A program made the position numbers and the translations under genes. Shown here one piece after another: positions 423 through 33,651 of a stretch of DNA of 64,000 nucleotides. Positions within the stretch are counted from its first letter, which is position 1. Every line of letters starts with the position of its first letter. Under the pieces are notes generated by a model, which saw nothing but the letters and a program-made list of their open reading frames with translations, was not told the origin of the DNA and did not search any database. The stretch lies in contig CAZEXI010000004.1 of NCBI GenBank assembly GCA_964516805.1, positions 710 to 64,709 of the forward strand, read 5' to 3'. The DNA comes from an uncultured Thermoplasmata archaeon. Its GTDB lineage: Archaea; Thermoplasmatota; Thermoplasmata; Halarchaeoplasmatales; Halarchaeoplasmataceae.

Positions 423-473
423 AAAATTGTAATAAGTTTTATTAGAGATAAGTCAAAACAGAAAATCGATATC

Positions 474-1616: not shown

Positions 1617-1623
1617 ATTACCC

Positions 1624-2397: not shown

Positions 2398-2501
2398 TAT
2401 ATCATCTCTTTATAAGGTTAAAGAGAAAAAGCTATTTGTAAATTTACTTGTAAATTTTCTTTTTTCAGGTCGCTGTGTAATTTCTTCTTAAAAAGTATGA
2501 T

Positions 2502-3443: not shown

Positions 3444-4435
3444 TCTACCTCCTCCCAAAAATGACAGGCTACAAAATGTTCTTCAGATATTTCTTCCAGG
3501 TCTGGTTTCTCCTTTTGACATATCTTTCTTGCATATTCACACCTGGGATGGAATCTACAGCCGGTAGGTGGATTTATCAATCTAGGTACTGTTCCTGGAA
3601 TCGTTTTAAAATCATCTATAGACATTTCAACGCCTGGTACAGAATGGATCAAACCAAGAGTGTATGGATGCTTTGGCTTTTTGAATATATCCTGAACATT
3701 AGCTGTTTCGACTATCTGTCCAGCATACATGACTGTCACTATATCACAAATTTCAGAAACTACAGCCATATCGTGGGTGATATATAATATAGATAAATCC
3801 ATCTCTTCCTGTAATGTTTTCAATACCTCTAAAAACTGAGCCTGTATCGATACATCTAATGCGGTAGTCGGTTCGTCTGCGATGAGAAGATTAGATTTAC
3901 AAGCAAGCATCATCGCGATCATGACCCTCTGTTTCATGCCTCCGCTCAATTCATGAGGATATTTTTCATAAACATCCTCTGGATCAGGTAGTTTTACCCT
4001 ATCTAATTCACTGAGAACTATGCGTTTAACCTCATTTTTATCTTTACTTTGATAAAGCACTACGGATTCTCTAACCTGATTACCAGCAGTGTATACTGGA
4101 TTTAGAGAGGTTTGAGGATTCTGAAAAATCATACTTATTTCATTACCCCTTATTTCTTTCCTCAATTTCTTTTCAGATAATCCCAATAAGTTCCTACCTT
4201 TGTATAATATCTTTCCGCCCATCAATCTTGCGTTTTTATCAAGCAAACCTAAAACAGCAAGGCTGGTGACAGATTTACCACATCCTGTCTCACCTATCAA
4301 TCCATGAATCTCTCCTTTTTTGACGACCAAATTTATGCTGTCAAGAGCTTTTACTATACCCTCTTCTGTTTCAAATTCAAGTTTAAGATCTTTAAGTTCC
4401 AGTAATGGTTCTCCCCTTTTTATACCATCTTTCAT
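3440..4435 (-). CDS. oppD: Oligopeptide/dipeptide ABC transporter ATP-binding protein
   Basis: GETGCGKS, LSGGMKQR, LIADEPTTALD, C-terminal PPTGCRFHPRC. Confidence 0.9.
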   Translation of the reverse strand: MKDGIKRGEPLLELKDLKLEFETEEGIVKALDSINLVVKKGEIHGLIGETGCGKSVTSLAVLGLLDKNARLMGGKILYKGRNLLGLSEKKLRKEIRGNEISMIFQNPQTSLNPVYTAGNQVRESVVLYQSKDKNEVKRIVLSELDRVKLPDPEDVYEKYPHELSGGMKQRVMIAMMLACKSNLLIADEPTTALDVSIQAQFLEVLKTLQEEMDLSILYITHDMAVVSEICDIVTVMYAGQIVETANVQDIFKKPKHPYTLGLIHSVPGVEMSIDDFKTIPGTVPRLINPPTGCRFHPRCEYARKICQKEKPDLEEISEEHFVACHFWEEVE

Positions 4436-5359
4436 TCAGGAGCCACCTCTTCTAACTGGATCAAGTGCATCTCTTAAACCATCGCCCATGAAATTGAATG
4501 CTAAAACGGTTACCACTATAGCCAAACCCGAAACAGTAACCATCAATGGATTGAACTGCATAAATACAGCCCCTGAGTTCACCATCTCACCCCAACTAGC
4601 TGTTGGTGGTTGGACACCAACACCAAGATAGTTTAAAGCTGCTGCCGCAAGGATCGCCCAGGGCATCTGAATTGTAGCCATGACAACTATAGAAGGTAAA
4701 ATGTTCGGTAAGAAATACCTAAAAATAATACTAATCCTGCTTTCACCTATAGCTTTTGCACTCTCGATAAATCCCTCATTTTTAATGGACAATACTTCAC
4801 CTCTAGTCACTCTCGCAAATCTAGTCCACATAACCAGACCAACAGCTATAATGACGGGGTAAAGTCCAAAACCAAGTGATGTGGCTAAAGCCAACCCAAA
4901 GAGTAGAGTTGGGAAAGCAAGGAATGTATCTACCAATCTCATTATAATCTCATCTACCCATCCACCAGTCGTACCTGCGATCAAACCTAATGTGACTCCG
5001 ATGCCTCCTGATATAAAAACCACTAGTATCCCTATCATAAGAGAAATTCTTGCACCGTACATCAGTCTAGTAAGTGTATCTCTACCCAACTGATCTGTAC
5101 CAAGTAGATGATTCCAAGAAGGATCAGCCCTTGTGTTGTAAACATCAGTTTTTATCGGGTCATGAGGAGCTATAAAAGGAGCAAAGATAGCTACTAAGAT
5201 CAATATTATCAGAACACTCATGCCAAATAAAGCCAATTTATTTCGTTTGAACCTTAGCCATACAAGCTGCATCTGGCTGGTTTCTTTTCTTTTTAGATCT
5301 TTAATCTCTTCCTCGATATCTACACCTTCAGTTCCAAAATATGATTCTTTTTCAGTCAT
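4436..5359 (-). CDS. oppC: Oligopeptide ABC transporter permease
   Basis: 307 aa multi-pass protein with a BPD-transport permease core, directly abutting oppD. Confidence 0.85.
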   Translation of the reverse strand: MTEKESYFGTEGVDIEEEIKDLKRKETSQMQLVWLRFKRNKLALFGMSVLIILILVAIFAPFIAPHDPIKTDVYNTRADPSWNHLLGTDQLGRDTLTRLMYGARISLMIGILVVFISGGIGVTLGLIAGTTGGWVDEIIMRLVDTFLAFPTLLFGLALATSLGFGLYPVIIAVGLVMWTRFARVTRGEVLSIKNEGFIESAKAIGESRISIIFRYFLPNILPSIVVMATIQMPWAILAAAALNYLGVGVQPPTASWGEMVNSGAVFMQFNPLMVTVSGLAIVVTVLAFNFMGDGLRDALDPVRRGGS

Positions 5360-5361
5360 GA

Positions 5362-6324
5362 TTATACCTCCTCTGAAGTACCGAGTTCTATCCTTGGATC
5401 AATGTATGTGTAAGCAATATCAGCTAAAAGATTGGCAATCACAGCTACTATTATCATCAATAAAATACTGCTTTGAACAGCTATGAAGTCCCTAGCCATG
5501 GTCGCTTCGAAGATAAATCGTCCCATTCCAGGTATGTTGAATATCTTTTCTATTATCATACCATATCCGATCAACCAAGGCATTCTCATCGCGATAACTG
5601 TAACCACAGGTATCAGTGCATTCCTTAAACCGTGCTTCAAAATAACTGTCCTGTTTTTCAATCCTTTAGTCTGTGCAGCTTTTATATAATCTTTATTTAA
5701 TACATTTAACATACTGGATCTCGTAAGTCTAGCTATAACAGCTTGTAGTCTAATTCCGATGACAAAAGCTGGCAATATCAGATAATATATATTTTCATAA
5801 CCTCCGAGCGGAAACCACTCGAGGTGAAATGAAAAAATCAGCAGAAATATAGTTCCTACCCAAAAACTTGGTGCACTCCGCCAAAATAAGGCTTGGACCG
5901 AGGCTAAGTAATCTATCCAAGTATTAGGATGTAAAGCACCGACAACACCTGTCCCTATCCCCAATATCACAGAAATAAGAAGAGCTAATCCCATCAATTG
6001 AAAGGTAATAGGAAGCTTTGGTTCGATCAACTCCGCTACAGGCATATCCCATCTTAAAGATATACCCAGGTCCCCTCTAAAGAGGCCTAACATCCAATCT
6101 CCATATTGAATGTACCATGGATTGTTCAAACCATGTTTTACATTGAATTCATGTATCCTTTCTTCAGTTGCATAAAGTCCTAAAATTCTTCTTGCAGGGT
6201 TAACATCTCCAACTCTTAAAATAGCAAAAGCGATGAATGTAGCTATCAAAATAACCGGGATGGATTTGATGATCCTCATTATGATGAATCTCTTCCTCTT
6301 GCTTTTTATATACTTCTCCAACAT
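5362..6324 (-). CDS. oppB: Oligopeptide ABC transporter permease
   Basis: 320 aa. Permease core with the typical KGLKNRTVILKHGLRNALIPV loop. Confidence 0.85.
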   Translation of the reverse strand: MLEKYIKSKRKRFIIMRIIKSIPVILIATFIAFAILRVGDVNPARRILGLYATEERIHEFNVKHGLNNPWYIQYGDWMLGLFRGDLGISLRWDMPVAELIEPKLPITFQLMGLALLISVILGIGTGVVGALHPNTWIDYLASVQALFWRSAPSFWVGTIFLLIFSFHLEWFPLGGYENIYYLILPAFVIGIRLQAVIARLTRSSMLNVLNKDYIKAAQTKGLKNRTVILKHGLRNALIPVVTVIAMRMPWLIGYGMIIEKIFNIPGMGRFIFEATMARDFIAVQSSILLMIIVAVIANLLADIAYTYIDPRIELGTSEEV

Positions 6325-12602: not shown

Positions 12603-15600
12603 TCATATACCTCTAGTATTTTCATACCATTTACGGATCTCGTAATCCGATACCCTTTTCTTTTTATTCTTTTTGTCTATCCTTACACCCATATTATGAT
12701 CATAGGCCCATTCCCTTATTGTTTTCTTATATTTATTGGGCCCCTCAAATTTCTTCACATTTACCAAACCGTCTGATATCCTAGCTGTGAAGGCTGCTAC
12801 CATTTCTGGACCATCAAAGACCACATGACATGTACCAAGATCAAATTTATCTTTTATCTCATCTCTAAAGTACAAGTTCAATCTATCTTTGGTGCTGAGA
12901 ACAAAATCTCCTTCAAAGCTGATATCCTCTATTTCATCAATACCTTCATCAAGCATCCAGTAAACAGTATCATCATTCTTTTTAAGGAAACCTTTGACCA
13001 TTAATCCTTCTTCAACCAGTACTGATAAGATCTTTCTCAACTCAGCCATAGGGAAATTAATACCAAGATAAGAAGATAATCGCTCTGCTGAAAACACACC
13101 AAAGTTTTCAAACATCCATTTGACTACTTCTTTTTTAGCATTCCATGGTGATATTTCAGCTGGTGGAGTTAATACGTATCTATTTTCATGGTCTCTGCCT
13201 ATGACCAGACCTTCATAAAGGTCATCGATTGCCTCTTTTGTTCTTGTTGTACTATATGGAGACTGATGATAGATGGTCCTTTTTGGAACCGGCTGCTTTT
13301 CATTGATTATCTTCTGAACTGTCTCCATTGCAGAATCGATGTCTACATTTTTTGCTGTTTTATAAATGGAAGTTTCCCTTGGTAATGCATATAAATAATA
13401 AGATGGTATCATCTTTCCAGCGTATACTTCCCCTCTTCTGTACAACCAGTCCAGTGAATAAAACTCATCTACTCTAGGCCTTAATTCAAAATCTGACCTT
13501 AACCCCTTCATCCCTTTCAATGCTTCTTTTGGATCTGTATATTTATCACCAAACACCTTCTGTCTGTAAAGGACATAAGTTTTCAGGTCTTCTTCTTCTA
13601 ATACATCTTCCACGATATTACCTTTCACCAGCATACCCTGGATCATGGTATATCCGTTTTCAAAAAATACTGACAATTTCTCTTCTGATAAGGTCGAGAC
13701 ATCCTTATTTTGATGGTTCCTTATCCTTACTATATCATATCCTTCAAGATTATGATATTCCATCATCTCATCTATTGCTTCTAGAGCTTCGTCCAAACAT
13801 GATTCATCATCAAGGTCTAGATGTCTAACTTCTATACATCCACTCATCTTCCATCTCTCTATACCACCGATGACCTCACCATCCTTAACTATAGGAAATA
13901 CCCAGTCATCGCCATATCGAGAGTAGATTTCAGCCCACATAGGTCTGGTATACGGGTCTCTTTTTGACAATATCCTCAATTTCTCATGCTCATTACCAGA
14001 GACCTCTTTCAAAATATCGACTTCATCCTGCAGTAAGTAAAGTTCCCTGCTTGAAGAACCTACCTGGATCTTTGTTACTTCGCCCTCATGGATCATACGT
14101 GATACGATCGATTCAACTTCCCTTCCGTTGAATCCAGTCTGATATCTTAGATCAGAGAATGAAATAGGACCGTTGCCTTTTATAAATCTTCTAACTATCC
14201 TTTTCTTAGCTACATCTTTATCTACTGGTTCAATATCAAGGGCTCTATACTTGTTTTTAGAAGACCAACCTTCCTTACCTGTATATTCTCTAATTATGTA
14301 GAGATTTTTATCAAGCTTCTTAACTATCTCTTTGACTCTATCATTTTTTAGATCACTTTTCTTCTTTAACTTACGCAACGTTCTAGCTTCCCCAGTTTGT
14401 ATAAGATGTAATATATTTCTCTCATCTTCGTTAAGTTCGCTATCTTCTCTATAAGCTCCAACAAATAATGGTATATCATTTTTGAAGGCATATCTTACTT
14501 TTCCTTTGATGAATCTACCTTCTACTATCTTACCATTTTCTCTCATCTCCTTCCATTTGTCAAGTGAAAAATTCTCTACTCTGTGGAAGACATCATATGA
14601 CATGCTGGCTTCTGTGAATAATTCGAAGTACTCTTCTATCGAACCCACTTTACCGAACTGTTTTTCAGCCTTGTATTCAGCTATCTTTTCCTCTGATACA
14701 TGTTCTCCTTCAGGGAATCTTAATGATTGATAATCTTCATGGAGCATGTACTGCTCTCCTTCACCCATAACTAGTCTACCTGAGACAACTTTGTTCTGCT
14801 CCACCAAATTGTTTAGGGCTTTTTGAGTCAAGTCCTCTCCAAGATCCAAAGTATAGGCTATTTCTTCTAAACTTCTAGGAGCCTCATATTCGAGATGATC
14901 TGAAATAATATTCTCAACAGATTCAAGATTCGTATCTTCCTTTTCAAGCAAACCATATTTGAATTTCCCTTCCTCAGTTATACCTTTTCTAGTAACAAGC
15001 AGTTTTCTCTCCATATCTCTTATTATATTATCGATATCTTTCAATCTCAGATTAGTCTCTTCGTAAATCTGTTTTTTAGTCTTGACACCTTCTTTTAAGG
15101 ATTCGATAACTGGGGTACTGCCGTGAGGCTGTTCACCTTGATCCAAGGAGTGTAGATAAACTTCCAAGTCTTCTGTAAGAACATATTTAACATCACCAAC
15201 CCAGATGGATTGTATCTTTCCATCATTCAACAGCTCCTTGGACCACTTTCTAACTGTATCGAATGGTTTATCTGTACGATTGAATATGTTATTACCTCTC
15301 TCATTCAATACATGGACTGGTTGTAACTTCTTGATTATGTCCAGCATCTCTTCTTTCTTGTTAAATGTAGGTTTCTTTTCAAAATAATATTCTTCGACAA
15401 CTTCACTTTCAAACTTGAATTTTTCTATCTCTTCCTTAGGGATCACCTGTTCTAGCACTTTTTGATGGAACTGTCTCAATAGAGCACTCTTATCCTCCAT
15501 CATTATAACGTCGGAGACTCCTACCATTATTACATTGTGAGCAAATGGTGATGGTGTGTTATTGTAGTCCTCTATACGTACTTCCATCTCACCTTCATCT

Positions 15601-18065
15601 ATCCACTTCAAGACCTCTTTAGCATGTTTTAGATCTAAAACCTGGTAAAGAATTTCATTGTAAGTTTCTTTAATTATCGGGAAATCATCAACACTATGAA
15701 GTCTGTCCAGTATTTTTCTAGACCTCAATTTCTGTTTTGATACTGAAATATCTCTACCTTTGTAATTCCTCAATATCATCAAAGCTCGACTTGCACAATG
15801 TCTAAATCTCTGTTTGAATAGTTCAGTATCTTTAACACAGCTCTTCAAAGTTTCATCAATATTTTTATAATCAACAAGATCGACCACTTCATCTATCTCT
15901 ATCTTTTTAGGAGTAGTTATCATGAAATTGTCATCTGTAACTGACACATTCGTATTACAGTTATATTTCTTAGAAATCTTATAAGCGAAAGCTCTGGACA
16001 GTGCGTCATTTGTCCTTCTTCCAAAGCATGCATGGAATATCAGATTATATTTACCATCCTGGTCTATATGTCCCTCTACAAGTAACCTTTTATCTGTCGG
16101 TAAATCTTTGATAACACCCATCTGTTCTTTGACATAACTTACGATTGTCTGGGCTGAACCCTTATCTATGTGGTAATTATCCATAAGCCAGTCAAGAACA
16201 TCATCATCGTTCACCCTTTCAGATAGCTTTCTTCTGAATCTGCCTATTCCAACAGATAGATCAAAGCTTCTTGGAAGCATCTCACCAGACCAGCTGGGTA
16301 CTGTTGGTTTCTTACCTGCAGCATCCTTAACAAAAACTTTTGTCCCTCTCGTATGCAGGAATTCGTACGAATGACTTCCAAGAACGAAAACATCTCCTTT
16401 AGCCAATCTCTCCACGAACTTTTCAGATAGCGTTCCCAAAGGCACCCCTTTATCAGAATAAACTCTATAACTCGAATCAGAAGGTATCGTACCTATATTC
16501 ATGTAATAGAGCATCTGAGAGCCACCCTTTTTACCGATGACTCCTTCATCTTCATTGTACCATATCTTAGGATATACTTTCTCTAGTTTTGTTCCTCCTA
16601 GATAATCCAAAACACTTAGAAAATCATCCTTGGATAAATCATGATAACAATATGATTTTTTGATGAGTTCATAAGCTTCGTCTACATCCCACCTGTGTTC
16701 GATACTCATTCCAATTATAGCCTGGGCTAATACATCTAAATTGTTTGTAGGTATGTTTACTCTATCGATCTCATGCTGATAGGCTTGATATGTCAAAACA
16801 GTACACTCTACCAAGTCATCCTTTTCGAAAACGATCATTCTTCCTTTCGAGGTTTCACCTATAGAGTGACCTGCCCTACCTACTCTCTGCAGTCCTTTAG
16901 CCACATTCTTAGGTGATCCCACCTGAACAACAAGATCGATATAACCAACATCTATACCCAATTCCAATGATGTTGAAGACACAGCTGCTTCCAATTCACC
17001 GTATTTTAATGAATCTTCAACATCCAATCGGGTCTCTTTACTTAGACTGCCGTGATGCGCAGCTATCTCTTCTATCCCTCTATCTTTCAATTTATAAGCA
17101 ACATTCTCAGCACCACTACGTGTGTTAGTGAATACCAAAGTTGTTCGATGATCCAGGACCATCTCCTTTAACTTATCGTACATCCTGGAATTGACTATCT
17201 CATAAGGCAGTAAAGTCATGTCTTCTACTGGGGATATGACAGATAGGTCCAATCTTTTCTCCCCCATGACCTCTATAATATTAACAGGTCTTGGCTTTCC
17301 ATTCTCAAAACCTCCAAGGTATTTGGCTATCTCTTCTATCGGTGCTTGTGTTGCTGATAGTCCTATCCTTGTCATCTCACTTTTTACATGGTCTTCTAGA
17401 CGTTCTGTATTTAATGAAAGGAAAACTCCTCTTTTTGATGAAGAGATCTCGTGTATCTCATCGTTAATAAAGTACTGTACATCATCGAATTTTTCTCTAA
17501 ATTTAGGCGATGATAATACCAAACCCAGACTTTCAGGAGTTGTGATAAAGATATGTGGCGGGTTCTTGGCCATCTTCCTCCTTTCTTTTTGAGATGTATC
17601 TCCAGACCTGATAGCTGTCTTAATTTCAGGAACCTTCATACCTTTCTTTTCAGCAAGTTCCTTTATCTCGTCAAGTGGTTCTTCTAGATTTTTGTGTATA
17701 TCATTAGCCAATGCTTTCAGGGGAGACACATAAACACAGTATATTTTATCTTCCAGCTCATCTTCTTTGTCCAGCTTGTACAACTCGTTGATTATAGATA
17801 AAAATGCGGTGAGTGTTTTTCCTGAACCCGTCGGTGACGATACTAGAACGTTCTCTCTTTCATGTATAAGCGGTATTGCATAACCTTGGGGCTCTGTAAG
17901 TGCATCAAATTTTTTGTTGAACCATTCAGCTATCAATGGTTCCATCAAATCAAGGATATCTTCCTTATCCTTTTCCTCTGTGACCCGTGTTATCATGGTT
18001 TCGATACCTATCGACAGTGTCGAATTCATGTCTACGATTAAGGTGTTTAATAATCTTTTCCTCAA
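12603..18065 (-). CDS. lhr: Lhr-family DEAD/DEAH helicase, long form with about 950-aa winged-helix/AlkZ-like C-terminal extension
   Basis: SSPTGSGKT, DEIH, SAT and QRVGRAGH motifs. These are followed by the Lhr WH and domain-4 signatures (LDVLAQAIIGM...; NIGTIPSDSSYRV...GDVFVLGSHSYEF). After about aa 870 come several wHTH-like modules and two YcaQ/AlkZ-like blocks. Confidence 0.85.
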   Translation of the reverse strand: MRKRLLNTLIVDMNSTLSIGIETMITRVTEEKDKEDILDLMEPLIAEWFNKKFDALTEPQGYAIPLIHERENVLVSSPTGSGKTLTAFLSIINELYKLDKEDELEDKIYCVYVSPLKALANDIHKNLEEPLDEIKELAEKKGMKVPEIKTAIRSGDTSQKERRKMAKNPPHIFITTPESLGLVLSSPKFREKFDDVQYFINDEIHEISSSKRGVFLSLNTERLEDHVKSEMTRIGLSATQAPIEEIAKYLGGFENGKPRPVNIIEVMGEKRLDLSVISPVEDMTLLPYEIVNSRMYDKLKEMVLDHRTTLVFTNTRSGAENVAYKLKDRGIEEIAAHHGSLSKETRLDVEDSLKYGELEAAVSSTSLELGIDVGYIDLVVQVGSPKNVAKGLQRVGRAGHSIGETSKGRMIVFEKDDLVECTVLTYQAYQHEIDRVNIPTNNLDVLAQAIIGMSIEHRWDVDEAYELIKKSYCYHDLSKDDFLSVLDYLGGTKLEKVYPKIWYNEDEGVIGKKGGSQMLYYMNIGTIPSDSSYRVYSDKGVPLGTLSEKFVERLAKGDVFVLGSHSYEFLHTRGTKVFVKDAAGKKPTVPSWSGEMLPRSFDLSVGIGRFRRKLSERVNDDDVLDWLMDNYHIDKGSAQTIVSYVKEQMGVIKDLPTDKRLLVEGHIDQDGKYNLIFHACFGRRTNDALSRAFAYKISKKYNCNTNVSVTDDNFMITTPKKIEIDEVVDLVDYKNIDETLKSCVKDTELFKQRFRHCASRALMILRNYKGRDISVSKQKLRSRKILDRLHSVDDFPIIKETYNEILYQVLDLKHAKEVLKWIDEGEMEVRIEDYNNTPSPFAHNVIMVGVSDVIMMEDKSALLRQFHQKVLEQVIPKEEIEKFKFESEVVEEYYFEKKPTFNKKEEMLDIIKKLQPVHVLNERGNNIFNRTDKPFDTVRKWSKELLNDGKIQSIWVGDVKYVLTEDLEVYLHSLDQGEQPHGSTPVIESLKEGVKTKKQIYEETNLRLKDIDNIIRDMERKLLVTRKGITEEGKFKYGLLEKEDTNLESVENIISDHLEYEAPRSLEEIAYTLDLGEDLTQKALNNLVEQNKVVSGRLVMGEGEQYMLHEDYQSLRFPEGEHVSEEKIAEYKAEKQFGKVGSIEEYFELFTEASMSYDVFHRVENFSLDKWKEMRENGKIVEGRFIKGKVRYAFKNDIPLFVGAYREDSELNEDERNILHLIQTGEARTLRKLKKKSDLKNDRVKEIVKKLDKNLYIIREYTGKEGWSSKNKYRALDIEPVDKDVAKKRIVRRFIKGNGPISFSDLRYQTGFNGREVESIVSRMIHEGEVTKIQVGSSSRELYLLQDEVDILKEVSGNEHEKLRILSKRDPYTRPMWAEIYSRYGDDWVFPIVKDGEVIGGIERWKMSGCIEVRHLDLDDESCLDEALEAIDEMMEYHNLEGYDIVRIRNHQNKDVSTLSEEKLSVFFENGYTMIQGMLVKGNIVEDVLEEEDLKTYVLYRQKVFGDKYTDPKEALKGMKGLRSDFELRPRVDEFYSLDWLYRRGEVYAGKMIPSYYLYALPRETSIYKTAKNVDIDSAMETVQKIINEKQPVPKRTIYHQSPYSTTRTKEAIDDLYEGLVIGRDHENRYVLTPPAEISPWNAKKEVVKWMFENFGVFSAERLSSYLGINFPMAELRKILSVLVEEGLMVKGFLKKNDDTVYWMLDEGIDEIEDISFEGDFVLSTKDRLNLYFRDEIKDKFDLGTCHVVFDGPEMVAAFTARISDGLVNVKKFEGPNKYKKTIREWAYDHNMGVRIDKKNKKKRVSDYEIRKWYENTRGI

Positions 18066-19050: not shown

Positions 19051-20550
19051 TTATCGTTCTCGATCGTAGTAATCGGACCATTCCTCTTTTTCTTTCGATG
19101 TTTCTCTATCGTACCTGTCCCTTTGAATAGAATCATCACTTTTTCTGTAAAGTAAGGTCACGATGATTACTAGTGCTAAACCTGCTACGAATACCATGAA
19201 TATTGGTCTCCCAAGTATTCCTCCTGGTCCAGTAGGTCCCTCATCGTCATCTGTGGAACTTGTAACTTCTAGATATGCGCTTCCTGACTGAGCTGGATCG
19301 TGGTATATTTGTTCTCCACCGGGATAGTTCAGTCCACCCCAAATCTGGAAACCTATGAAGTTATCCGTGAATGGTCCAATATGAACAATAGGTGCTCCAC
19401 CCATGATCTGAGCCGTCATTTTGTCTGGTGCTTCATCGACTGTTACATTGGATTCCCATTTAAACATTCCAACCCTAGACCATTTACTTCCATACTGAAT
19501 CCTGTTCTGCTTTAGAATTTTCTCTTGGAATCGTCTTGTATCACTGAAATTTGTATCTTCTTCTCCATCTTGTGTCCTGAATTTAGCTCCTTCCTGCGGC
19601 AGTTTTTGATGCATAAATCTCCTGTACCAATTATTCGGTCCATCTGGATACCTGTTTCCGAACATATTATGAAAACCCATCACTAACATAGGATTCTGAT
19701 TATCTTCCTCATAATCCCATCCATCTATTTCATGATCCCATTTCATATCATAATCTCCTACTACTCCGTTTACCTTCTGAGACCCATTTCTGTTAGCATT
19801 TCGGAATACTCTTCTGTCTCCAATTCCTTTTCTAACTTCAACATCAAATGAAGGCATCTCAACATCTTCAACTTCCCTTGTTCCAGCAGTTAGGTGGAAT
19901 GTAAAATTCACATATTCTAGTACTTCTTCATCCATGCCTGGTGTAAGTGAATAACCAACTGGCTCATATGACAAATTTCTAGCAGTCAGTGTAAATTCCC
20001 AAGATGTATTATCACCATCTTGTTCTTCGATCAATTCACTTGATGTCCATTCAGCATCCCTCAGGTTAACGTATTTATATACTTCCTCTAACTCAGAAGT
20101 GATCTTTCCGTCTTCGTCCATCACGAAGTTCACTACACCATTTTGATTGCTATCATTATATTCGTATATCTTACCTATTGTAGTTCCAAGCATAGATTTC
20201 ATTTTAACATAACTATTCTGTTTTTCATCTTCGTTTTGGCCAATTCCAGTCATCTGGACCTGTACTTGAGCTAAATACCTTACCTGAGTGGATACCATAA
20301 CTATCGAATTTGGATTACTGCTCGTTCCCCATATAACTCCGAACATAGCATCAGTACCTGGATCATTACTGAACTTGAAATACCTGTAGGCTCCACCACC
20401 AAATCGATCAGTTGTCCCTTCGTCTACTTCTACGTCCCATGAATTCTCACCCTCATCAGCGTTTACCGGTCCTACTGTAAATATAGAACTTACTGCGAGA
20501 AGTGCGATAACCATGAAAGCTAGATACGTTTTTCCTCTCATTTTGATCAC
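19051..20550 (-). CDS. Hypothetical secreted protein, C-terminally membrane-anchored
   Basis: 499 aa. N-terminal signal (TYLAFMVIALLAVSSIFTVGPVNA), C-terminal TM (IFMVFVAGLALVIIVTLLY) and a roughly 30-aa charged tail. Confidence 0.6.
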   Translation of the reverse strand: MIKMRGKTYLAFMVIALLAVSSIFTVGPVNADEGENSWDVEVDEGTTDRFGGGAYRYFKFSNDPGTDAMFGVIWGTSSNPNSIVMVSTQVRYLAQVQVQMTGIGQNEDEKQNSYVKMKSMLGTTIGKIYEYNDSNQNGVVNFVMDEDGKITSELEEVYKYVNLRDAEWTSSELIEEQDGDNTSWEFTLTARNLSYEPVGYSLTPGMDEEVLEYVNFTFHLTAGTREVEDVEMPSFDVEVRKGIGDRRVFRNANRNGSQKVNGVVGDYDMKWDHEIDGWDYEEDNQNPMLVMGFHNMFGNRYPDGPNNWYRRFMHQKLPQEGAKFRTQDGEEDTNFSDTRRFQEKILKQNRIQYGSKWSRVGMFKWESNVTVDEAPDKMTAQIMGGAPIVHIGPFTDNFIGFQIWGGLNYPGGEQIYHDPAQSGSAYLEVTSSTDDDEGPTGPGGILGRPIFMVFVAGLALVIIVTLLYRKSDDSIQRDRYDRETSKEKEEWSDYYDRER

Positions 20551-20673: not shown

Positions 20674-23394
20674 ATGGGGCCTAAAACCAGACTTTTAACT
20701 CATAAAGAAAGGATACTTTTACTTATCGATGAAGTTGATTTTGATAAAGAAGATTACATGGCTCCATACATATTGTGCCAGGACGGGATAAGTGAAGCAC
20801 TAGACATTTTAAAAAATAATGTAAGTAGAGAAATAACTGGGCTGAAAGAGGAGAGTCTCATCAAAGAAGAACTCTCTAGAGTAAAAGGTGTGGAAAGACG
20901 AAGAAACATATATCTACTGACAGAAAAAGGAGAAGAGGCTGCTTATAGAATAGAGAACGAAATATTAGAAGAAGAGATACTCGTGGAAGATAACGGCAAG
21001 AAAAAAATATCATTGAAAGAAGCTTTGGATAGATTGAAAGAAAATCATCAAAATGTAACACCACTACATATAGAAGAATGGTTAAGAAAGAAAGATGTTC
21101 TTCATGTACATAATTTTAAAACCCCATCATTTGTGACAGATGGTACTGAGGAAGAAAAAGTTGAGATGATCGTCAGTGCCCCTTCTAAGGGAGATTTTTA
21201 TGGTAGAAAAGAAGAAATAAAAAACATAACATCGCTTTTAAAAGGATCTGTACCACCGATCGTCTTGATATCAGGAATAGCAGGGATAGGAAAAAGCAGC
21301 TTAGGCATCATGTTGATGGATGAACTCAAAAACAAAAAGGATATACTCTGGTACAGTTTTCAAAAATGGGATAATAAAGAAAGTTTAGGGAAAGTTATCA
21401 GCGATTTCTGTGTAAGAGGTGGTATGAACTCACTAGATACAGAAAAATCCTTACCTATAATTACTACTGAATTTATTGAAAAAATTTCAGGATTAGATCC
21501 AGTTATTTTTTTAGATGACTGTGAAAATTTATCCGATGATCTAGAGGTCTTTTTTGAAATAGCTTTAGAACATAAAAAAAGAGGAGAAGATTTTGCTTTG
21601 ATACTGATGAGTAGAAAGAAGATGAACTTTTACGATGTTAGAGACATTATGGACGACCACGTATTCGAGCTTGAACTCGGTCCTCTAGATATAGAATATG
21701 TGAAAGAGATGATCGGAGGAGAAAAAAATGCTGAGAGGATATATGAAAAAACCGAAGGACATCCCCTGTACATTGAACTGAGTAAAAAATATCCTGGTGA
21801 AACAACCAGGATGAACGATTTTATCGAGGATGAGATCTACTCTAAGTTGGAGGAAAGAGAAAAAGCTGCACTGCGTAAATTATCTGTATTCTGGGAGCCC
21901 GTAAGTAAGGATATCATTTTGGATGAAGGAGAATTAGACATACTTATCAGACTAAAGAAAAACAACCTTGTCAAAGAAACCAGAGATGGAAAAGTAACGA
22001 TCCATTCGATATTGAAGGAATTCTTTTATGAACATCTATCTATGGATAAAAGGAAAGAACTTCATCTTAAGGCTGCAGAACGATTGAAAAGGTTTGAAGG
22101 AGTGAAAAAACTTGAAATTCTATATCATTTCGAAAAGGCAGAACGATGGAAAGAAAGCTTAGAATTGATGAAAGAATTGACTCACCAGATCAGTACGTTA
22201 AATGATTCACTTCGTGAGGAGATTATTAAAGGATTTCCGGGTAAAGCGATACCTGAAAACGATAAAGGAGAGTATTATGAAATTTTAGGTAATATCTATC
22301 TTGAATCTGAAGAGTGGAAGAAAGCAAAAGAATACTATCAAAAGGCTGTTGAAAACGGAATGGATTCCACCTTGATGAGAGAGAAATTAGGAGAAGCACA
22401 GATGAAACTTCAGCAGTGGAATGAAACTATCGAATCACATAAAAAAGCACTAAAAAAATATAAAGAAAAGGAAGATAAAAAAGGAGTTGCACGTGAATAT
22501 CTCAGTCTAGGTACAGTTTACAGAAAAAAAGGTGAGTATAAAAAGGCTGAAAAATATTATGAAAATGTTAAGAATATAATCGAAAATAAAGATTATAGGG
22601 ATATCAAGCCAACCTTGTTTAATAATCTAGGAATGTTAGCATTGGCTAAAAAGGATTTTAAAAGATGTGAGGATATGTTATTTAAATCTTTGAAAGTAGG
22701 AGGGGAAAAGGGAGTGATATATGAAAATTTGTCATTACTTTATAAAAATAAAGGGGAAACAGTAAGGTCATTAGAATATTTAGAGAAATCGATCAAAAAT
22801 TATTACTCTAAGGGGAAACAAAAATTAGCTGTTAATCTTCTTCTTGATAGTGCCGATAGATACTTAGAAACTGGTGATGCAGAACAGGCTGTGGATAACC
22901 TCAAGAAAGGGGTCGATATTGAGCAAGAAAAACAATTAGGATTTTCATTATTCAAAAGCACGAAAATGAGCAGGTTAGAGGTCCAACTGCACAATAAACT
23001 TGCAGATGTATTGAGAAATAAAGACTGGACAGGGTGTTTAAATCATCGCATGAGAGCTGTAAAAGGCTTTGCGGATTTAGGAGAACAAGAAAAGTCTGAC
23101 AGAGTCATGTTAAAATACGCGTTTGACTTACATGACAGTGGTAGATCAAAGGAAGCTATTAATGCCTTAGATGAACTCATCAGTAAATTGAAAGAGAAAG
23201 GTGTGATGAACGGTGTTAATGCATGTGAGCTTGAAAAAGCCAGGGTATACAGAAAGATGGGAAGATATCAGGAAGCAAAGAATATCCTAGATGATATCAT
23301 TGAACGATCAAAAGAGATGGGAGATGAAAAGGCACTGAAAAGAGCTAAAGATATCAGAAATAATGTTCTTAAAAAAATGGGTAAAAATACGTGA
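20674..23394 (+). CDS. STAND-type ATPase (archaeal ATPase / PF01637-like) with N-terminal wHTH and C-terminal TPR array
   Basis: 906 aa. FYGRKEEIKNITSLL precedes Walker A GIAGIGKSSLG; Walker B is VIFLDDCE. Multiple TPR-like repeats in the C-terminal half (YYEILGNIYLESEEWKKAKEYYQKA, YLSLGTVYRKKGEYKKAEKYY). Confidence 0.7.
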   Translation: MGPKTRLLTHKERILLLIDEVDFDKEDYMAPYILCQDGISEALDILKNNVSREITGLKEESLIKEELSRVKGVERRRNIYLLTEKGEEAAYRIENEILEEEILVEDNGKKKISLKEALDRLKENHQNVTPLHIEEWLRKKDVLHVHNFKTPSFVTDGTEEEKVEMIVSAPSKGDFYGRKEEIKNITSLLKGSVPPIVLISGIAGIGKSSLGIMLMDELKNKKDILWYSFQKWDNKESLGKVISDFCVRGGMNSLDTEKSLPIITTEFIEKISGLDPVIFLDDCENLSDDLEVFFEIALEHKKRGEDFALILMSRKKMNFYDVRDIMDDHVFELELGPLDIEYVKEMIGGEKNAERIYEKTEGHPLYIELSKKYPGETTRMNDFIEDEIYSKLEEREKAALRKLSVFWEPVSKDIILDEGELDILIRLKKNNLVKETRDGKVTIHSILKEFFYEHLSMDKRKELHLKAAERLKRFEGVKKLEILYHFEKAERWKESLELMKELTHQISTLNDSLREEIIKGFPGKAIPENDKGEYYEILGNIYLESEEWKKAKEYYQKAVENGMDSTLMREKLGEAQMKLQQWNETIESHKKALKKYKEKEDKKGVAREYLSLGTVYRKKGEYKKAEKYYENVKNIIENKDYRDIKPTLFNNLGMLALAKKDFKRCEDMLFKSLKVGGEKGVIYENLSLLYKNKGETVRSLEYLEKSIKNYYSKGKQKLAVNLLLDSADRYLETGDAEQAVDNLKKGVDIEQEKQLGFSLFKSTKMSRLEVQLHNKLADVLRNKDWTGCLNHRMRAVKGFADLGEQEKSDRVMLKYAFDLHDSGRSKEAINALDELISKLKEKGVMNGVNACELEKARVYRKMGRYQEAKNILDDIIERSKEMGDEKALKRAKDIRNNVLKKMGKNT

Positions 23395-28457: not shown

Positions 28458-28856
28458 ATGGGTTTCAAAATGAGTGTCGATGATAATATCGTTGATATCA
28501 CTAATAGCAACTTCTCTGATAAAATTAAATATCATGATAAGATCGTTTCTGTATTTTTTTACAGTCCACAATGTCCTCACTGCAAAAAAGTACTACCAAT
28601 ATACAAAAAATTAGCTCAGAATATGGACAAGGTAATCTTTGGACAAGTTAACGTTTTAAATCAAAGAGAATTAACTCTAAAACAGGGAATAAGTTCGGTG
28701 CCTACAATAAGGTTCTATTGTGATTCAAATCAACTTGGGGAGATTATGGGAGAAATAAATGAAACTATGCTAAAAAATACGATTAAAGACTATCAAAAAT
28801 ACGGTAAAAGCTGTTCTAAAACAACACCTATCCGAGAGCTAGACGGTTACGCATAA
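28458..28856 (+). CDS. Thioredoxin-fold protein (CPHC active site)
   Basis: 132 aa. FFYSPQCPHCKKVLPIY and SVPTIRF (cis-Pro) motifs. Confidence 0.7.
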   Translation: MGFKMSVDDNIVDITNSNFSDKIKYHDKIVSVFFYSPQCPHCKKVLPIYKKLAQNMDKVIFGQVNVLNQRELTLKQGISSVPTIRFYCDSNQLGEIMGEINETMLKNTIKDYQKYGKSCSKTTPIRELDGYA

Positions 28857-28913: not shown

Positions 28914-29387
28914 ATGATATGGTTCATAATGAAAAGAGCAATAATTGTTGCTTTAGTTATATTTATTTCATTTAGCATTGCTGGCTGTTCAAATCCACCC
29001 TCTCCACCAGGATCAGAAATACCTATGGTGGTAGTAGATTATGTTGATAGTGATAAATACAGTAATGTTAACGAAAACCATTCAATTATATATGTACATG
29101 GGTTGGATGAAATAAGATACAAAAATATAACTATCAAAATAAATAATAAAACGGTCCTCAGTAAGAATCATACTTATTCTTCAGAGGTAACAACTAATCT
29201 AACTAAATTTGGATTAAATATTAAAGTAGTGCATTATGAAAAACGTTTTATTTACAATGCGACTTTTGAAATGTCAGAGAAAAAAGATATTAGGTACAAA
29301 ATAACCTATCCTGACCAGGACACTAAAGAAGTCAATATTGATGATCTGCCCTACTCAGAAAAATTAGATCAAGTTGAGGAGGAATAA
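28914..29387 (+). CDS. Hypothetical lipoprotein
   Basis: Signal peptide with lipobox FSIAGC. No recognisable family. Confidence 0.5.
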   Translation: MIWFIMKRAIIVALVIFISFSIAGCSNPPSPPGSEIPMVVVDYVDSDKYSNVNENHSIIYVHGLDEIRYKNITIKINNKTVLSKNHTYSSEVTTNLTKFGLNIKVVHYEKRFIYNATFEMSEKKDIRYKITYPDQDTKEVNIDDLPYSEKLDQVEEE

Positions 29388-29389
29388 AA

Positions 29390-29701
29390 ATGCGTGATAT
29401 ACCTCTATCATTATTGTTACTAGCTACTGGCTTAATCTTCGTTGGCGTTATAGTGATACTTATATTAACAGGATATATATCATTCGAAGAGATCTTCACT
29501 AGATTCATAGTATTCGTATTCTCTTTGGTAATCATCTCTATACTTGCAATAATCGGTGCTGTGTTTATCGGTATGTTCATTTCACACAGAGTCTTTTCAT
29601 CGAGGCAATTTACCACCTTTGAAGAAGAGATGCTGAAAATGAAAAGTGACGTTAATGAAATGAGAGAAATGATAGAAGAATTAAAAGATAAAGAAGATTA
29701 A
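29390..29701 (+). CDS. Hypothetical small membrane protein (2 TM plus coiled-coil tail)
   Basis: 103 aa with two hydrophobic segments, then EEEMLKMKSDVNEMREMIEELKDKED. The start is 2 nt after the preceding stop. Confidence 0.5.
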   Translation: MRDIPLSLLLLATGLIFVGVIVILILTGYISFEEIFTRFIVFVFSLVIISILAIIGAVFIGMFISHRVFSSRQFTTFEEEMLKMKSDVNEMREMIEELKDKED

Positions 29702-30684
29702 ACCAAGGATTCTGGACATATATCTCTTCTTGAACAATTTTTACATTTTCCTTTTCTGTTATGGTTGCGATGAATATCTTCAGTTTCTAAAGCCTTTCTC
29801 ATATCATCTAATTTACCTATCAAAAGTTCTTTTAAATCCTCATCATAATCTATCTCAAATTCTTTCTTACCATATCTTATGATTCCATATGGTGGTGCTT
29901 CTCCTTTTTCCTCCTCGATCATCAAACAGTAAGCTGCAAGTTGAATTATATGTGAAAAAAAAGGTCCTTGGGGAACTCTACCGGTTTTGACCTCAACGGG
30001 AACGCTTTTCCCTTCCCTTTCTATTATAAAATCTGGTCGACCTCTTAATTTATACTTTTCAGAAACCAGCATATCGGAATTTCTGTCAGGATTATCCACA
30101 TAAGTGATATCATCTTCTATATCAATTTCCTTTCTAGCATCCTTAGATTCGTTTCTTAAAGTCAAAGATATTTTTAGCCAATAACTAGCACCTATCAACC
30201 AAACTAGAGATATCACTTGGGCTAACTTAGCTAAATTGTAGTCAGCTATTTTAAATGTCATGCCGTAAACAGCTAGAACAGTAGCCACCATTGCAAATAT
30301 CAGTATCGTTCTTTCTAATTTTGTCTCTTGTAACTCCCATAATCGGCTTTCACTCAAATATAGTAAAAAAGCTGCTGCTAAAATCCATACTAATGAATTT
30401 ATAATAAAAATATTGCTGAAAATATTTTCAGGGTACAGAAATGTGATGCCCATGATCGATATTATTGTAGCACTCACAGCAAGCCATAATATGATACTTT
30501 CTAACTTTTTGATGCTCTCTTCCTTACTCTTTATACTATCGACCTTTTCTCCTATTTGCTTATGTTGGATATTTCCTTTTTTAAGGTCTTCATTGGTGAC
30601 CTCCTGTTCTTCACTCAACCACCAACTCAATGGACAGTATCCATACTTTTCAACATCACTTGCTGAAATCCATTTATCACTCAT
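29698..30684 (-). CDS. Cas4/RecB-family PD-(D/E)xK Fe-S nuclease carrying a four-helix transmembrane insertion
   Basis: N-terminal YCPLSWW Cys and GNIQH. Four hydrophobic helices at about aa 61-173. Then RGRPDFII, VPVEVKTGR, IIQLAAYCLMIEE and the terminal CKNCSRRDIC. Confidence 0.7.
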   Translation of the reverse strand: MSDKWISASDVEKYGYCPLSWWLSEEQEVTNEDLKKGNIQHKQIGEKVDSIKSKEESIKKLESIILWLAVSATIISIMGITFLYPENIFSNIFIINSLVWILAAAFLLYLSESRLWELQETKLERTILIFAMVATVLAVYGMTFKIADYNLAKLAQVISLVWLIGASYWLKISLTLRNESKDARKEIDIEDDITYVDNPDRNSDMLVSEKYKLRGRPDFIIEREGKSVPVEVKTGRVPQGPFFSHIIQLAAYCLMIEEEKGEAPPYGIIRYGKKEFEIDYDEDLKELLIGKLDDMRKALETEDIHRNHNRKGKCKNCSRRDICPESLV

Positions 30685-31729: not shown

Positions 31730-32485
31730 TTATCCACTCACATTTTGATATGCTTCCCATAATTTTGGAACTGTATCTATCTCTTTAATTTCTTCAGGAG
31801 ACACCCATTTATATTCTACATTTTCCCAGTTCAAATCAACATCGCCTTTTACGTTAAATAAAAATGGATTCACATCCCATATTTTATTTTTATACCTAAC
31901 TCTAACAATCTCCCCCTTTCTTACAAAATCAGTATTTAATCCAGTTTCCTGTTCAATTTCTATCAGGGCTTGATCCATCAAACTCTCAGTTTCAACATAT
32001 CCTGAAACAGCTGACCATTTACCTCGATAACTACCTACATTTTTACCTCTTTTTAGAAGTAATACTTTGCCTTTATTCATCAAGAACGAGGTCACTACTG
32101 GTTGTCTGTGAACGTTTTTTAAATTTATCTTTCCCTCTTCGCCATCTATTTCTACTTTGTCTCCATCTTTAAATAGATCTATCTGAATTTTATCTAACAG
32201 AGGTATATCTGATATTATCGCTCCTGTAGCCACTATCGTTTCAGATCTAGTGTTGATCATGCCTTTGGGAGCAGTTCCATTCTTCTTCAATTGATATATG
32301 ACATATGACCCTACAGTGCTTCCTCTTCCGCCGGGAAATACGAAAATTGAATCCTTTATACTCTTTCTATTAAATACAACACCTGTATTAGGGTCAACAT
32401 CTCCTAAGAATGATACTGGGTTTTCTACTTTCACGACTTCTCCCTCTACATAACCTTTAGAGATACCCCTTCCTTCCAGTATCAT
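31730..32485 (-). CDS. AcnX small subunit (DUF126 swivel domain) fused to a C-terminal Nudix hydrolase domain
   Basis: The N-terminal 125 aa or so carry GEVVKVENPVSFLGDVDPNTG...FPGGRGSTVGSYVIYQLKKNGTAPKGMI (DUF126). The C-terminal half carries a Nudix-box-like GYVETESLMDQALIEIEQETGL. Confidence 0.7.
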   Translation of the reverse strand: MILEGRGISKGYVEGEVVKVENPVSFLGDVDPNTGVVFNRKSIKDSIFVFPGGRGSTVGSYVIYQLKKNGTAPKGMINTRSETIVATGAIISDIPLLDKIQIDLFKDGDKVEIDGEEGKINLKNVHRQPVVTSFLMNKGKVLLLKRGKNVGSYRGKWSAVSGYVETESLMDQALIEIEQETGLNTDFVRKGEIVRVRYKNKIWDVNPFLFNVKGDVDLNWENVEYKWVSPEEIKEIDTVPKLWEAYQNVSG

Positions 32486-33651
32486 GCTATCATCTCCAGC
32501 AGAGTTTTGGTGTCTGCATAGATCACCTTTTGATCTGCCAACTTTGGCAAGTAAGCTGAAGCTTTACCAGAGTTGGTTGCTGCTGTCTCATATTTTTCTT
32601 CTAGAGGACTCACCACCATACATGTATCTGTTATAACTTCACCATATTTTTTAATGGTATTTACCGCCTCAGGAACTTGATTTGCTACATATTTACTGGT
32701 GTATACTAATAGATCCGGACCTTCTTTAGGCTCCTTATCATCCAATATATCAGCTATGTACTCTAACTCATTTGAAGAGAGATGGGGGCAGCCTAGAACG
32801 ATCACATCTGGCTCGGACTCAGTAATCAATCCTTCTTTTACTTCATTTATATCTTCGTCGGTTATAGTTATTCTCTCTAAGGCTTCGGTAGAGAAATCGT
32901 TCCATTCAGGTGTTATATTTTCCACATGATATAGTGCTACTGAACCGGTAGCTGCCATAGCTGCACCTAAAGTTTTCAATTGATCATCCTTATAATCAAC
33001 CCCTCTAAAATATGGTACCCTATCACCTACCATCTCTCCAACTTTATAACCTAGCAAAGCAGCTGGATAATCGTCTTCAACTTCAAAAACTACATCTGGA
33101 CTTCTATTCTCTTTGATATGTAAGCCGTAATAAGGAGTCTTTCCAATTACTGCTGACATCAATGCTGATGGACCACCTTCTCTATTCGTCCTGGCTCCAA
33201 GAACAGAATTCGCATAGGATACTGCTGAACTTTCGCTCCAAGCTAAGTGCTCGTCTTTTTTTGGTTTATTTCCAGCTAGATAAGGCGTGCATGTGCAGGA
33301 AACTTCGATACCCATACTACTGTACGCTTCGATTAACCTTTTCTGTTTTTTTCTAAAATCTTCAGACTCGTAGTGTTTTTTTTCAAGGTCCATTCCTGCT
33401 GGATTCAACATTGACTTTATCTTAACTTTGGCCTTTTTAGAAAAATCTTCGATAAATTCCAGTCCAGCATCACCCATTGTTTTATAAGAGACACCAGCTA
33501 TCTGTGCAGACTTCACGGGTATGAGTCTCTCAGCATCATAAATATCTCCCAAAGCTACTAAGATCTCCATCGCTTTCTGGGGACCTGGTCCTTTACCCCC
33601 CTCTAAAATCCTTTCCTCTTCCTTGGTTAGATTCAAGCTATCACCTTTCAA
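32482..33651 (-). CDS. AcnX large subunit (DUF521 aconitase-X catalytic domain), putative phosphomevalonate dehydratase large subunit
   Basis: 389 aa. LTKEEERILEGGKGPGPQKAMEILV at the N-terminus and the length fit DUF521. ATGA overlap with the small-subunit gene. TTG start in the track. Confidence 0.7.
   Translation of the reverse strand: MKGDSLNLTKEEERILEGGKGPGPQKAMEILVALGDIYDAERLIPVKSAQIAGVSYKTMGDAGLEFIEDFSKKAKVKIKSMLNPAGMDLEKKHYESEDFRKKQKRLIEAYSSMGIEVSCTCTPYLAGNKPKKDEHLAWSESSAVSYANSVLGARTNREGGPSALMSAVIGKTPYYGLHIKENRSPDVVFEVEDDYPAALLGYKVGEMVGDRVPYFRGVDYKDDQLKTLGAAMAATGSVALYHVENITPEWNDFSTEALERITITDEDINEVKEGLITESEPDVIVLGCPHLSSNELEYIADILDDKEPKEGPDLLVYTSKYVANQVPEAVNTIKKYGEVITDTCMVVSPLEEKYETAATNSGKASAYLPKLADQKVIYADTKTLLEMIA

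Follow-up and report, generated by a model that had tools for sequence, protein, structure and literature searches.

The window analysed here is a stretch of 64,000 nucleotides from an uncultured Thermoplasmata archaeon (contig CAZEXI010000004.1, positions 710 to 64,709), and it encodes a 328 amino acid Cas4-family nuclease of the iron–sulphur (Fe-S) type that is interrupted by four hydrophobic segments. We refer to this protein as Cas4-TM, where TM stands for transmembrane. It is very likely that the polypeptide leaves the nuclease fold after the helix carrying His41, crosses the membrane four times and completes the fold on its return. Both halves of the nuclease and all of the cluster cysteines are predicted to be on the cytoplasmic face, with only two loops of approximately eight residues outside. 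A Cas4-family nuclease is encoded by approximately 90% of archaeal genomes (PMC5704561). The role of the family outside CRISPR is an old question, to which a membrane-built version found across a phylum gives a testable clue, namely action at the envelope. The gene and its parts are as follows.

29698 to 30684, reverse strand: Cas4-TM gene, 328 residue Cas4-family Fe-S PD-(D/E)xK nuclease with an internal, predicted four-TM insertion (open reading frame, Pfam, NCBIfam and PADLOC Cas4 matches, AlphaFold2 (AF2) model, Foldseek).
30520 to 30684, reverse strand: N-terminal Cas4 segment, residues 1–55, with Cys17 (YCPLSWW) and His41 (G-x3-H), both invariant among 93 homologues; aligns to residues 5–53 of 8d3l.
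30337 to 30519, reverse strand: hairpin unit 1, residues 56–116, TM1 and TM2 with a short outer loop (Kyte–Doolittle hydropathy, loop charge, AF2 helices, homology to unit 2).
30145 to 30333, reverse strand: hairpin unit 2, residues 118–180, TM3 and TM4 with a conserved W161-L-x-G-A-S-Y motif (hhalign against unit 1, AF2 helices).
29701 to 30129, reverse strand: C-terminal nuclease core, residues 186–328, with Asp218, Glu231, Lys233, Gln248, Tyr252 and Cys314-x2-Cys317-x5-Cys323 (TIGR00372, invariance in 93 of 93 sequences, alignment to 8d3l and 4ic1).

The open reading frame begins with ATG, a start that is shared among homologues, the N-termini of which line up at 'WISASDVEKYGYCPLSWW'. A preliminary description of this DNA, made from its letters alone, had quoted a series of nuclease motifs, and each of these is recovered in the 328 residue product: KYGYCPLSWW (Cys17) and GNIQH (His41) near the N-terminus, RGRPDFII (Asp218), VPVEVKTGR (Glu231, Lys233) and IIQLAAYCLMIEE (Gln248, Tyr252) in the core, and CKNCSRRDIC (Cys314, Cys317, Cys323) at the C-terminus. 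All of the RecB nuclease motifs are there, from the metal-binding His through D and ExK to QxxxY, and in alignments they coincide with those of the Cas4 structures 8d3l and 4ic1. The set of four cluster-type cysteines is also complete, with one at the N-terminus and a C-x2-C-x5-C arrangement at the C-terminus. Profile searches, which the same description had proposed with PF01930 and PF12705, confirm that the motifs are not spurious. TIGR00372 'cas4' (NCBIfam) scores 89.4 bits over residues 206–324 (cutoff 65), PF12705 (PDDEXK_1) 60.2 bits (cutoff 22) and PF01930 (Cas_Cas4) 46 bits (cutoff 22.7), and PADLOC Cas4 profiles match down to E = 6e-26, several of them in two stretches flanking the insertion. 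Homologues of Cas4-TM number more than 1000, the full-length matches being approximately 330 residues long. In an alignment of 93 homologues 42 columns are invariant, some of them within the TM helices; Cys17, His41, Asp218, Glu231, Lys233, Gln248, Tyr252, Cys314, Cys317 and Cys323 are all conserved in 93 of 93.

A profile of this 93-member family matches the Cas4 structures 8D3L and 4IC1 in profile searches. The alignment to 8D3L comes in two parts, in which profile positions 4–51, the segment with the Cys and His, correspond to Cas4 residues 5–53 and core positions 231–332 correspond to residues 102–202. Approximately 180 profile positions in the Cas4-TM family stand in for approximately 48 residues of an ordinary Cas4 (8d3l about 53–102). 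The AF2 model of Cas4-TM, made on the family alignment, has a mean pLDDT of 85.3 and a pTM of 0.69, with an alpha/beta core after the helices, and a Foldseek search with the model gives 8d3q, 7mi5, 4r5q and 4ic1 at a probability of 1.00 and E-values down to 1.6e-5. The Foldseek partners of the nuclease core are type I-C Cas4, the Cas4/Cas1 fusion, Pcal_0546, SSO0001, Dna2, MGME1 and ACE1. The N-terminal 55 or so and the C-terminal 145 or so residues together constitute a complete Cas4 nuclease, which is predicted to be active and to bear an Fe-S cluster because the catalytic and cysteine residues are invariant in every one of the 93 sequences.

Cas4 proteins of known structure (PF01930/TIGR00372; 4IC1, 4R5Q, 8D3L, 7MI4) are the best structural matches of Cas4-TM and share with it the PD-(D/E)xK core, the D, ExK and QxxxY motifs and the one plus three cysteines. 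Cas4-TM differs from an ordinary Cas4 in the approximately 125 residues of predicted membrane hairpins between the His41 helix and the core, in an extra invariant cysteine, in neighbours that encode a two-TM protein and an exoprotein, and in that no Cas1, Cas2 or CRISPR association was found for it. The extra cysteine, Cys253 (29926–29928, reverse strand), lies just after QxxxY, is invariant in 93 of 93 sequences and is not among the four canonical cluster ligands. AddB, Dna2, MGME1 and ACE1 resemble Cas4-TM in the nuclease fold and in action on free DNA ends, as proposed for Cas4-TM below (Foldseek matches 5ean, 5zyv and 9iac), and AddB and Dna2 carry an Fe-S 'staple'. These proteins, the Cas4-like domains of which belong to repair and to pAgo-associated systems, are, however, soluble and often helicase-fused or Argonaute-partnered, and none has a transmembrane insertion.

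The four hydrophobic segments, which the preliminary description had placed at nucleotides 30166–30504, are present at residues 64–84, 92–111, 126–145 and 155–174. Three of the four exceed 2.1 on the Kyte–Doolittle (KD) scale over a 19 residue window. Across the 93 homologues the mean KD values of segments 1–4 are 2.09, 2.11, 2.35 and 1.15, and charged residues are nearly absent from them. In the AF2 model the helices run over residues 31–80, 86–111, 119–142 and 148–186. Lysine and arginine residues are distributed unevenly about the segments, with family means (n = 93) of 3.46 before TM1, 3.10 in the loop between TM2 and TM3 and 3.73 after TM4, as against 0.66 and 0.73 in the outer loops 1–2 and 3–4, which are 8–9 residues each. 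Because basic residues concentrate on the side that bears the nuclease halves, the positive-inside rule predicts a cytoplasmic location for the nuclease core as well as for the N-terminal segment and the loop in the middle. This fits with the assembly of Fe-S clusters in the cytoplasm. The topology rests on hydropathy, charge bias and comparison among relatives.

For that comparison we used 209 representatives found at E < 1e-30 when a profile was run against all of 1.84 billion representatives. These fall into length classes of approximately 265–285, 330 and 500–645 residues, and by hydropathy their insertions have 2, 4 or 8 helices; counts of six or seven segments are rare, and counts of '3' and '5' take in a hydrophobic helix of the nuclease core near residue 240. 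An hhalign comparison of TM1–TM2 with TM3–TM4 gives a probability of 99.2% (E = 5.9e-20, 35% identity over 52 columns), and all 20 control comparisons with shuffled columns gave E-values of at least 0.005. Judged by this alignment, a single two-TM hairpin unit occurs twice in tandem in the insertion, and helix counts are even because the insertion grows by homologous units of this kind. A hidden Markov model (HMM) of the hairpin mostly finds one unit in the two-TM forms, two in the four-TM forms and four in the nearest eight-TM forms, but misses diverged units of the distant forms. Basic residues flank the hairpin units and are scarce at the hairpin turns. Growth by whole hairpins would be expected if both halves of the nuclease must share one side of the membrane.

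The preliminary description had argued that an even number of helices keeps all of the cysteine ligands on one face, and the counts of 2, 4 and 8, the hairpin duplication and the placement of basic residues all support this; the homologues with the insertion, the collection of which it had suggested, comprise the 93-member family and the wider set of 209 representatives, in which two-, four- and eight-helix forms occur. Inside the helices Trp99, Leu107, Phe129 and Trp161-Leu-x-Gly-Ala are invariant or nearly so (Trp99, Leu107, Trp161, Leu162 and Ala165 being invariant), a pattern of conservation that argues for specific helix–helix contacts and not for a passive anchor. In terms of protein evolution, a TM module would have been placed within the fold of an enzyme and enlarged in steps of entire hairpins (to 2, 4 or 8 helices), which keeps the topology and the Fe-S site intact. 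A phylum-wide, membrane-integrated Fe-S Cas4 with modular hairpins would come as a surprise to specialists in Cas4 and in archaeal DNA metabolism.

The named homologues of Cas4-TM are all from metagenome-assembled genomes (MAGs) of Thermoplasmatota, save for one contig labelled as Aenigmatarchaeota. They come from Thermoplasmata (the window itself belongs to the halo-alkaliphilic Saliniplasma/Natronoplasma group among these), from MAGs labelled as Methanomassiliicoccales, from DHVE2 and from Poseidoniia (Marine Group II). The last of these, very abundant marine archaea, are among the keepers of the membrane-built Cas4, with the Poseidoniia two-TM form alone occurring on more than 100 contigs. 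When one genome of each GTDB species was scanned for the motifs, at least 300 species genomes encoded a relative, which is a lower bound as the motifs are specific to the four-TM form. A cultured host was sought with the profile of DHVE2 and Methanomassiliicoccales sequences and there was none among the matches listed, the named ones of which were all MAGs. The nearest soluble relatives are ordinary Cas4 proteins of approximately 175 residues from mixed taxa. Cas4-TM appears to have been inherited vertically across the Thermoplasmatota as a core-like gene. A viral or mobile origin was considered and set aside, as a scan of viral contigs with the family motifs gave 22 pattern matches, none of which is a relative.

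The single exception to this distribution is a contig (L004, JBKHKA010000001.1) labelled 'Candidatus Aenigmatarchaeota', which carries a 60% identical Cas4-TM together with the full synteny of one Thermoplasmata neighbourhood type, clade A below. Because of this synteny, the contig is probably mis-binned or mislabelled.

The genes of the window include those for an Lhr-type helicase, LeuRS, GlmS, a thermosome, an M50 protease, an ABC-transporter solute-binding protein and three tRNAs. Clustering of the neighbours covered 81 loci and separated four neighbourhood types. In clade A, which includes the window, AcnX, an AcnX-swivel/NUDIX protein and an aIF-2B-like gene are upstream of Cas4-TM, the last at a spacing of approximately 50 nt. 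In clade B the upstream genes encode an FBP aldolase/phosphatase, TIM and a secreted LTD-PLD-PKD protein. In clade C the upstream gene encodes a TPD (PF14811) protein, GlmS and a GlmU-like gene follow downstream and RNase HII is nearby; a separately annotated 1.86-Mb contig agrees with this arrangement. Clade D has an Rce1-like protease downstream. The Poseidoniia form lies in the same direction as THEP1 NTPase, Trm1, Rpo11 and TruD. Conservation of the neighbourhood, a check that the preliminary description had called for, is thus seen as four types with housekeeping neighbours in every clade, and this is the context of a cellular gene that is stably inherited, not that of a defence island.

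No repeat array was found across the 64-kb window, and a search for CRISPR arrays in 89 sources totalling 1.13 Mb (the window and 88 related loci) likewise found none. Two CRISPR-like signals (L016:5377–5574 and L061:912–1079) are due to coding sequence that is repeated in tandem and in frame (periods 54 and 69 nt), without spacers. PADLOC was run on 60 open reading frames of the window, and of the 62 families that matched, the 25 listed contain no Cas1, 2, 3, 5, 6 or 7, only generic helicase, ATPase and helix-turn-helix matches; families beyond these 25 would be single-member matches at E-values above approximately 7e-12. Of the strong PADLOC matches that the window gave, DpdJ, BrxH and Mad among them, none adjoins the Cas4-TM gene. 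The statement of the preliminary description that the gene has no CRISPR-cas context therefore holds for the window, in which there is no array and no strong cas match among the PADLOC families listed, and extends to arrays in the 88 related loci. By context Cas4-TM is a CRISPR-independent solo-Cas4, and the label 'CRISPR-associated Cas4' could wrongly imply CRISPR adaptation in genomes that possibly have none.

Solo-Cas4 proteins (Hudaiberdiev et al. 2017, PMC5704561; Methanosarcina mazei, PMC12501428) are, like Cas4-TM, encoded away from CRISPR-cas loci. The M. mazei enzyme is a [4Fe-4S] protein whose cleavage of linear DNA depends on metal ions (PMC12501428). In contrast to Cas4-TM, which is predicted to span the membrane, the described solo-Cas4 proteins are soluble, with that of M. 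mazei forming a soluble complex of approximately 318 kDa (PMC12501428), and the RecB motif that Cas4-TM has kept is absent from the M. mazei protein. Cas4-TM does not have the solo-Cas4 profile of a soluble protein of approximately 170–270 residues without membrane segments. Text searches of PMC5704561 and PMC12501428 gave no relevant mention of a membrane or an insertion, and no prior description of a membrane-inserted Cas4 was found in a literature search outside of which most subscription papers lay. The one paper found with both 'Cas4' and 'transmembrane' (PMC13621843) deals with a Cas4-DEDD fusion of Mycoplasma, which is soluble.

Downstream of Cas4-TM, and convergent with it, are two genes that we treat as candidate partners.

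29390 to 29701, forward strand: partner 1, 103 residue two-TM protein, the C-terminal helix of which is acidic (family HMM); its stop overlaps the Cas4-TM stop in TTAA.
28914 to 29387, forward strand: partner 2, 157 residue N-terminally anchored protein with lipobox IAGC and an Ig/FnIII-like beta-sandwich, predicted to be extracytoplasmic (co-occurrence, AF2).

By family HMMs a 103 residue two-TM protein and an anchored protein of approximately 155 residues lie tail to tail with Cas4-TM in 49 of the 77 loci that have enough downstream sequence to judge. Most of these have a 4-nt overlap of the stops, and the TTAA overlap reported for the window in the preliminary description is real. That description had listed three convergent neighbours, of which the lipoprotein and the two-TM protein are conserved partners; the third, a thioredoxin-fold protein (28458–28856), is at that position in only a few loci, and we regard it as incidental. 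In clade B the anchored protein belongs to family f24, which is homologous to the clade A lipoprotein but diverged, with a signal anchor where the latter has its lipobox. The pair also adjoins the eight-TM variant (E = 1.5e-31 for the two-TM protein and 1.1e-27 for the anchored protein). Clades A and B share no neighbours other than this pair, their upstream genes being different, and because of this we read the pair as functionally linked to Cas4-TM. The AF2 model of the anchored partner has a pLDDT of 62.7, with a beta-sandwich at residues 38–119 that gives only generic matches to Ig, FnIII and CBM-like folds, from which no function can be read, and the protein has no Pfam or NCBIfam family and no sequence relative in the Protein Data Bank. 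The idea that the two-TM partner is a free copy of the Cas4-TM hairpin was rejected (hhalign probability below 1%).

Other neighbours are specific to particular clades. The LTD-PLD-PKD protein (L042:1393–4005 and 11 other clade B loci; L085:3–641) is a membrane-anchored, secreted protein of approximately 870 residues with two LTD, two PLDc_2 and a PKD domain, and may be an extracellular nuclease or phospholipase. Its spacing to Cas4-TM is operon-like, with a median of 20 nt (range −4 to 24) in 12 clade B loci, and it is also found beside the eight-TM form. In 11 clade C loci the TPD-family gene (PF14811; L056:2587–3372, L087:6200–6976 and nine others) has a similarly operon-like spacing on the same strand, with a median of 22 nt (range −4 to 57); it encodes a relative of human CDIN1/C15orf41 that is a predicted PD-(D/E)xK nuclease. 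TPD and PLD homologues were sought in the 64-kb window and none was found. Upstream of the two-TM form in one Marine Group II locus (L081) are genes for a 1778 residue protein without a Pfam match (163–5499) and a 141 residue N-terminally anchored, beta-rich protein (5514–5939). The latter was tried as a diverged form of the lipoprotein partner and rejected (probability 0.7%).

Our favoured reading, to which we give a probability of roughly 40%, is that Cas4-TM could be a membrane-held, end-processing nuclease for DNA that enters the cell, coupled through the two-TM protein to a component of the surface. The hairpins would hold the nuclease at the inner surface of the membrane and off the nucleoid. 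A free-end nuclease held at the membrane would thereby be limited to free-ended DNA that appears at the envelope, whether from a virus, a plasmid or the environment, and the chromosome would be spared. Entering DNA would be trimmed or degraded from its ends, as by soluble Cas4 enzymes, and through the two-TM partner and the exoprotein the enzyme would be linked to some structure or event at the surface of the cell. Free-ended DNA is the substrate of the characterised Cas4 proteins SSO0001, Pcal_0546 and M. mazei solo-Cas4 (PMC12501428). The preliminary description had suggested action on incoming DNA, in defence or uptake, or on DNA associated with vesicles or pili, and these roles are plausible. 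As to whether invaders would be excluded or imported DNA processed and salvaged, the link to the secreted LTD-PLD protein in certain clades hints at salvage.

A working analogy, and no more than that, is provided by SNIPE of Escherichia coli, a cytoplasm-facing, membrane-anchored GIY-YIG nuclease that cuts phage DNA during injection; its anchor keeps it off the chromosome, and once stripped of this anchor it is toxic and turns on the host nucleoid (bioRxiv 10.1101/2025.11.03.685801). Both would be nucleases that face the cytoplasm at the membrane, but they have no domain in common. SNIPE has a GIY-YIG fold with DUF4041 and a single N-terminal TM anchor, whereas Cas4-TM has a PD-(D/E)xK fold with Fe-S and internal hairpins, and neither GIY-YIG nor DUF4041 was found in it with Pfam. 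SNIPE is also a bacterial defence gene, whereas Cas4-TM is an archaeal, core-like one. If a SNIPE-like reading were true, archaea and the Cas4 fold would join the cases in which self is told from non-self by location.

Several points weigh against the favoured reading. The fourth helix is only moderately hydrophobic (family mean KD 1.15), though it is nonetheless helical in the AF2 model and homologous to TM2. The partner pair is convergent with Cas4-TM and hence not co-transcribed with it, and it was not found within 8 kb on either side in clades C and D or in Marine Group II. As for the clade-specific links to PLD and TPD proteins, they could be plain synteny. A core-like, syntenic and slowly evolving gene is unlike the typical defence genes of an arms race.

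The alternatives differ in how much of this they would explain. Were the hydrophobic insertion a buried helical domain or an oligomerisation module of a soluble enzyme, the moderate hydrophobicity of the fourth segment would be accounted for, and soluble Cas4 proteins do form large oligomers (PMC12501428); this would, however, leave three segments of approximately 20 residues with KD values above 2.1 and almost no charges, a strict positive-inside pattern, the prevalence of 2, 4 and 8 helices and modelled helices that look TM-like (24–26 residues, longer where they run into stalks), and we consider it most improbable. Equally improbable is that Cas4-TM is an ordinary Cas4 of CRISPR adaptation that acts in trans with Cas1–Cas2 encoded elsewhere in the genome. 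Its score above the equivalog cutoff of TIGR00372 and its database name 'CRISPR-associated protein Cas4' would suit that role, but the window has no strong cas match among the PADLOC families listed, no array was found there or in the 88 related loci (1.13 Mb in all), and the neighbours are housekeeping genes in every clade. Membrane embedding would also be ill suited to docking on the soluble Cas1–Cas2 integrase (8d3l, 7mi4). CRISPR systems are usually patchy in distribution, unlike a gene carried by at least 300 species genomes.

The main rival to the favoured reading is a role in chromosome maintenance, in which the enzyme would trim chromosomal ends in repair, replication restart or the clearing of the division site and the anchor would limit or position its activity. 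This is the sort of gene that the phylum-wide, syntenic and apparently vertical distribution among housekeeping genes would suggest, and the high sequence conservation, the operon-like arrangement with a TPD/CDIN1-type PD-(D/E)xK protein and the nearby RNase HII in clade C, and the wide occurrence of soluble solo-Cas4 proteins in archaea (PMC5704561, PMC12501428) all agree with it. It leaves unexplained why a repair nuclease should be placed integrally in the membrane and carry specific intramembrane motifs, and also the pairing with a two-TM protein and a surface-exposed Ig-like protein and the link to a secreted LTD-PLD protein, and we regard it as possible but doubtful. Somewhat further down the scale, and unlikely, is a sub-case of the favoured reading in which Cas4-TM would serve the uptake and salvage of environmental DNA (eDNA): surface nucleases such as the LTD-PLD-PKD protein would cut the DNA and Cas4-TM would degrade or convert the import at the cytoplasmic face for nucleotides or recombination, by analogy with the EndA and ComEC steps of bacterial transformation. 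A core-like gene would suit a metabolic or uptake function, and the start of Cas4-TM abuts or overlaps the gene of the anchored, secreted protein with its two PLDc_2, LTD and PKD domains (12 clade B loci and the eight-TM form). The PLD superfamily takes in the Nuc endonucleases, and LTD is found in bacterial extracellular nucleases. PLD domains are equally able to act on lipids, however, the LTD-PLD link is confined to one or two clades, pore features are not evident in the TM hairpins, and no channel, pilus or ComEC-like gene recurs beside Cas4-TM in the clustered neighbours of 81 loci.

A long shot is that Cas4-TM might form a ring like the pentameric or decameric toroids of soluble Cas4, in which the hairpins, perhaps with the two-TM partner, would line a pore that opens onto the nuclease chamber, which would give archaea a channel for DNA that has its end-processing nuclease built in and the Ig-like protein as receptor or gate. 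If true, such a pore would be the counterpart of the ComEC/EndA step of bacteria, either importing DNA or destroying it during injection.

Some other genes of the window merit description. In the clade A neighbourhood an AcnX swivel domain fused to a NUDIX hydrolase is encoded directly downstream of the AcnX large subunit (31730–32485 and 32482–33651, both reverse strand), and this fusion and gene order recur in approximately 28 clade A loci. The Lhr-type helicase (12606–18065, reverse strand) is a protein of 1820 residues with DEAD, Helicase_C, WH_Lhr and DEAD_assoc domains and an AlkZ-like DNA glycosylase domain at residues 1207–1401, and is probably the source of the strong DpdJ- and BrxH-like matches in PADLOC. 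A 499 residue open reading frame without a Pfam match at E ≤ 1e-5 lies at 19054–20550 on the reverse strand, and a 906 residue protein encoded at 20674–23391 on the forward strand combines an AAA_16 NTPase region with many TPR repeats in a STAND-like architecture.

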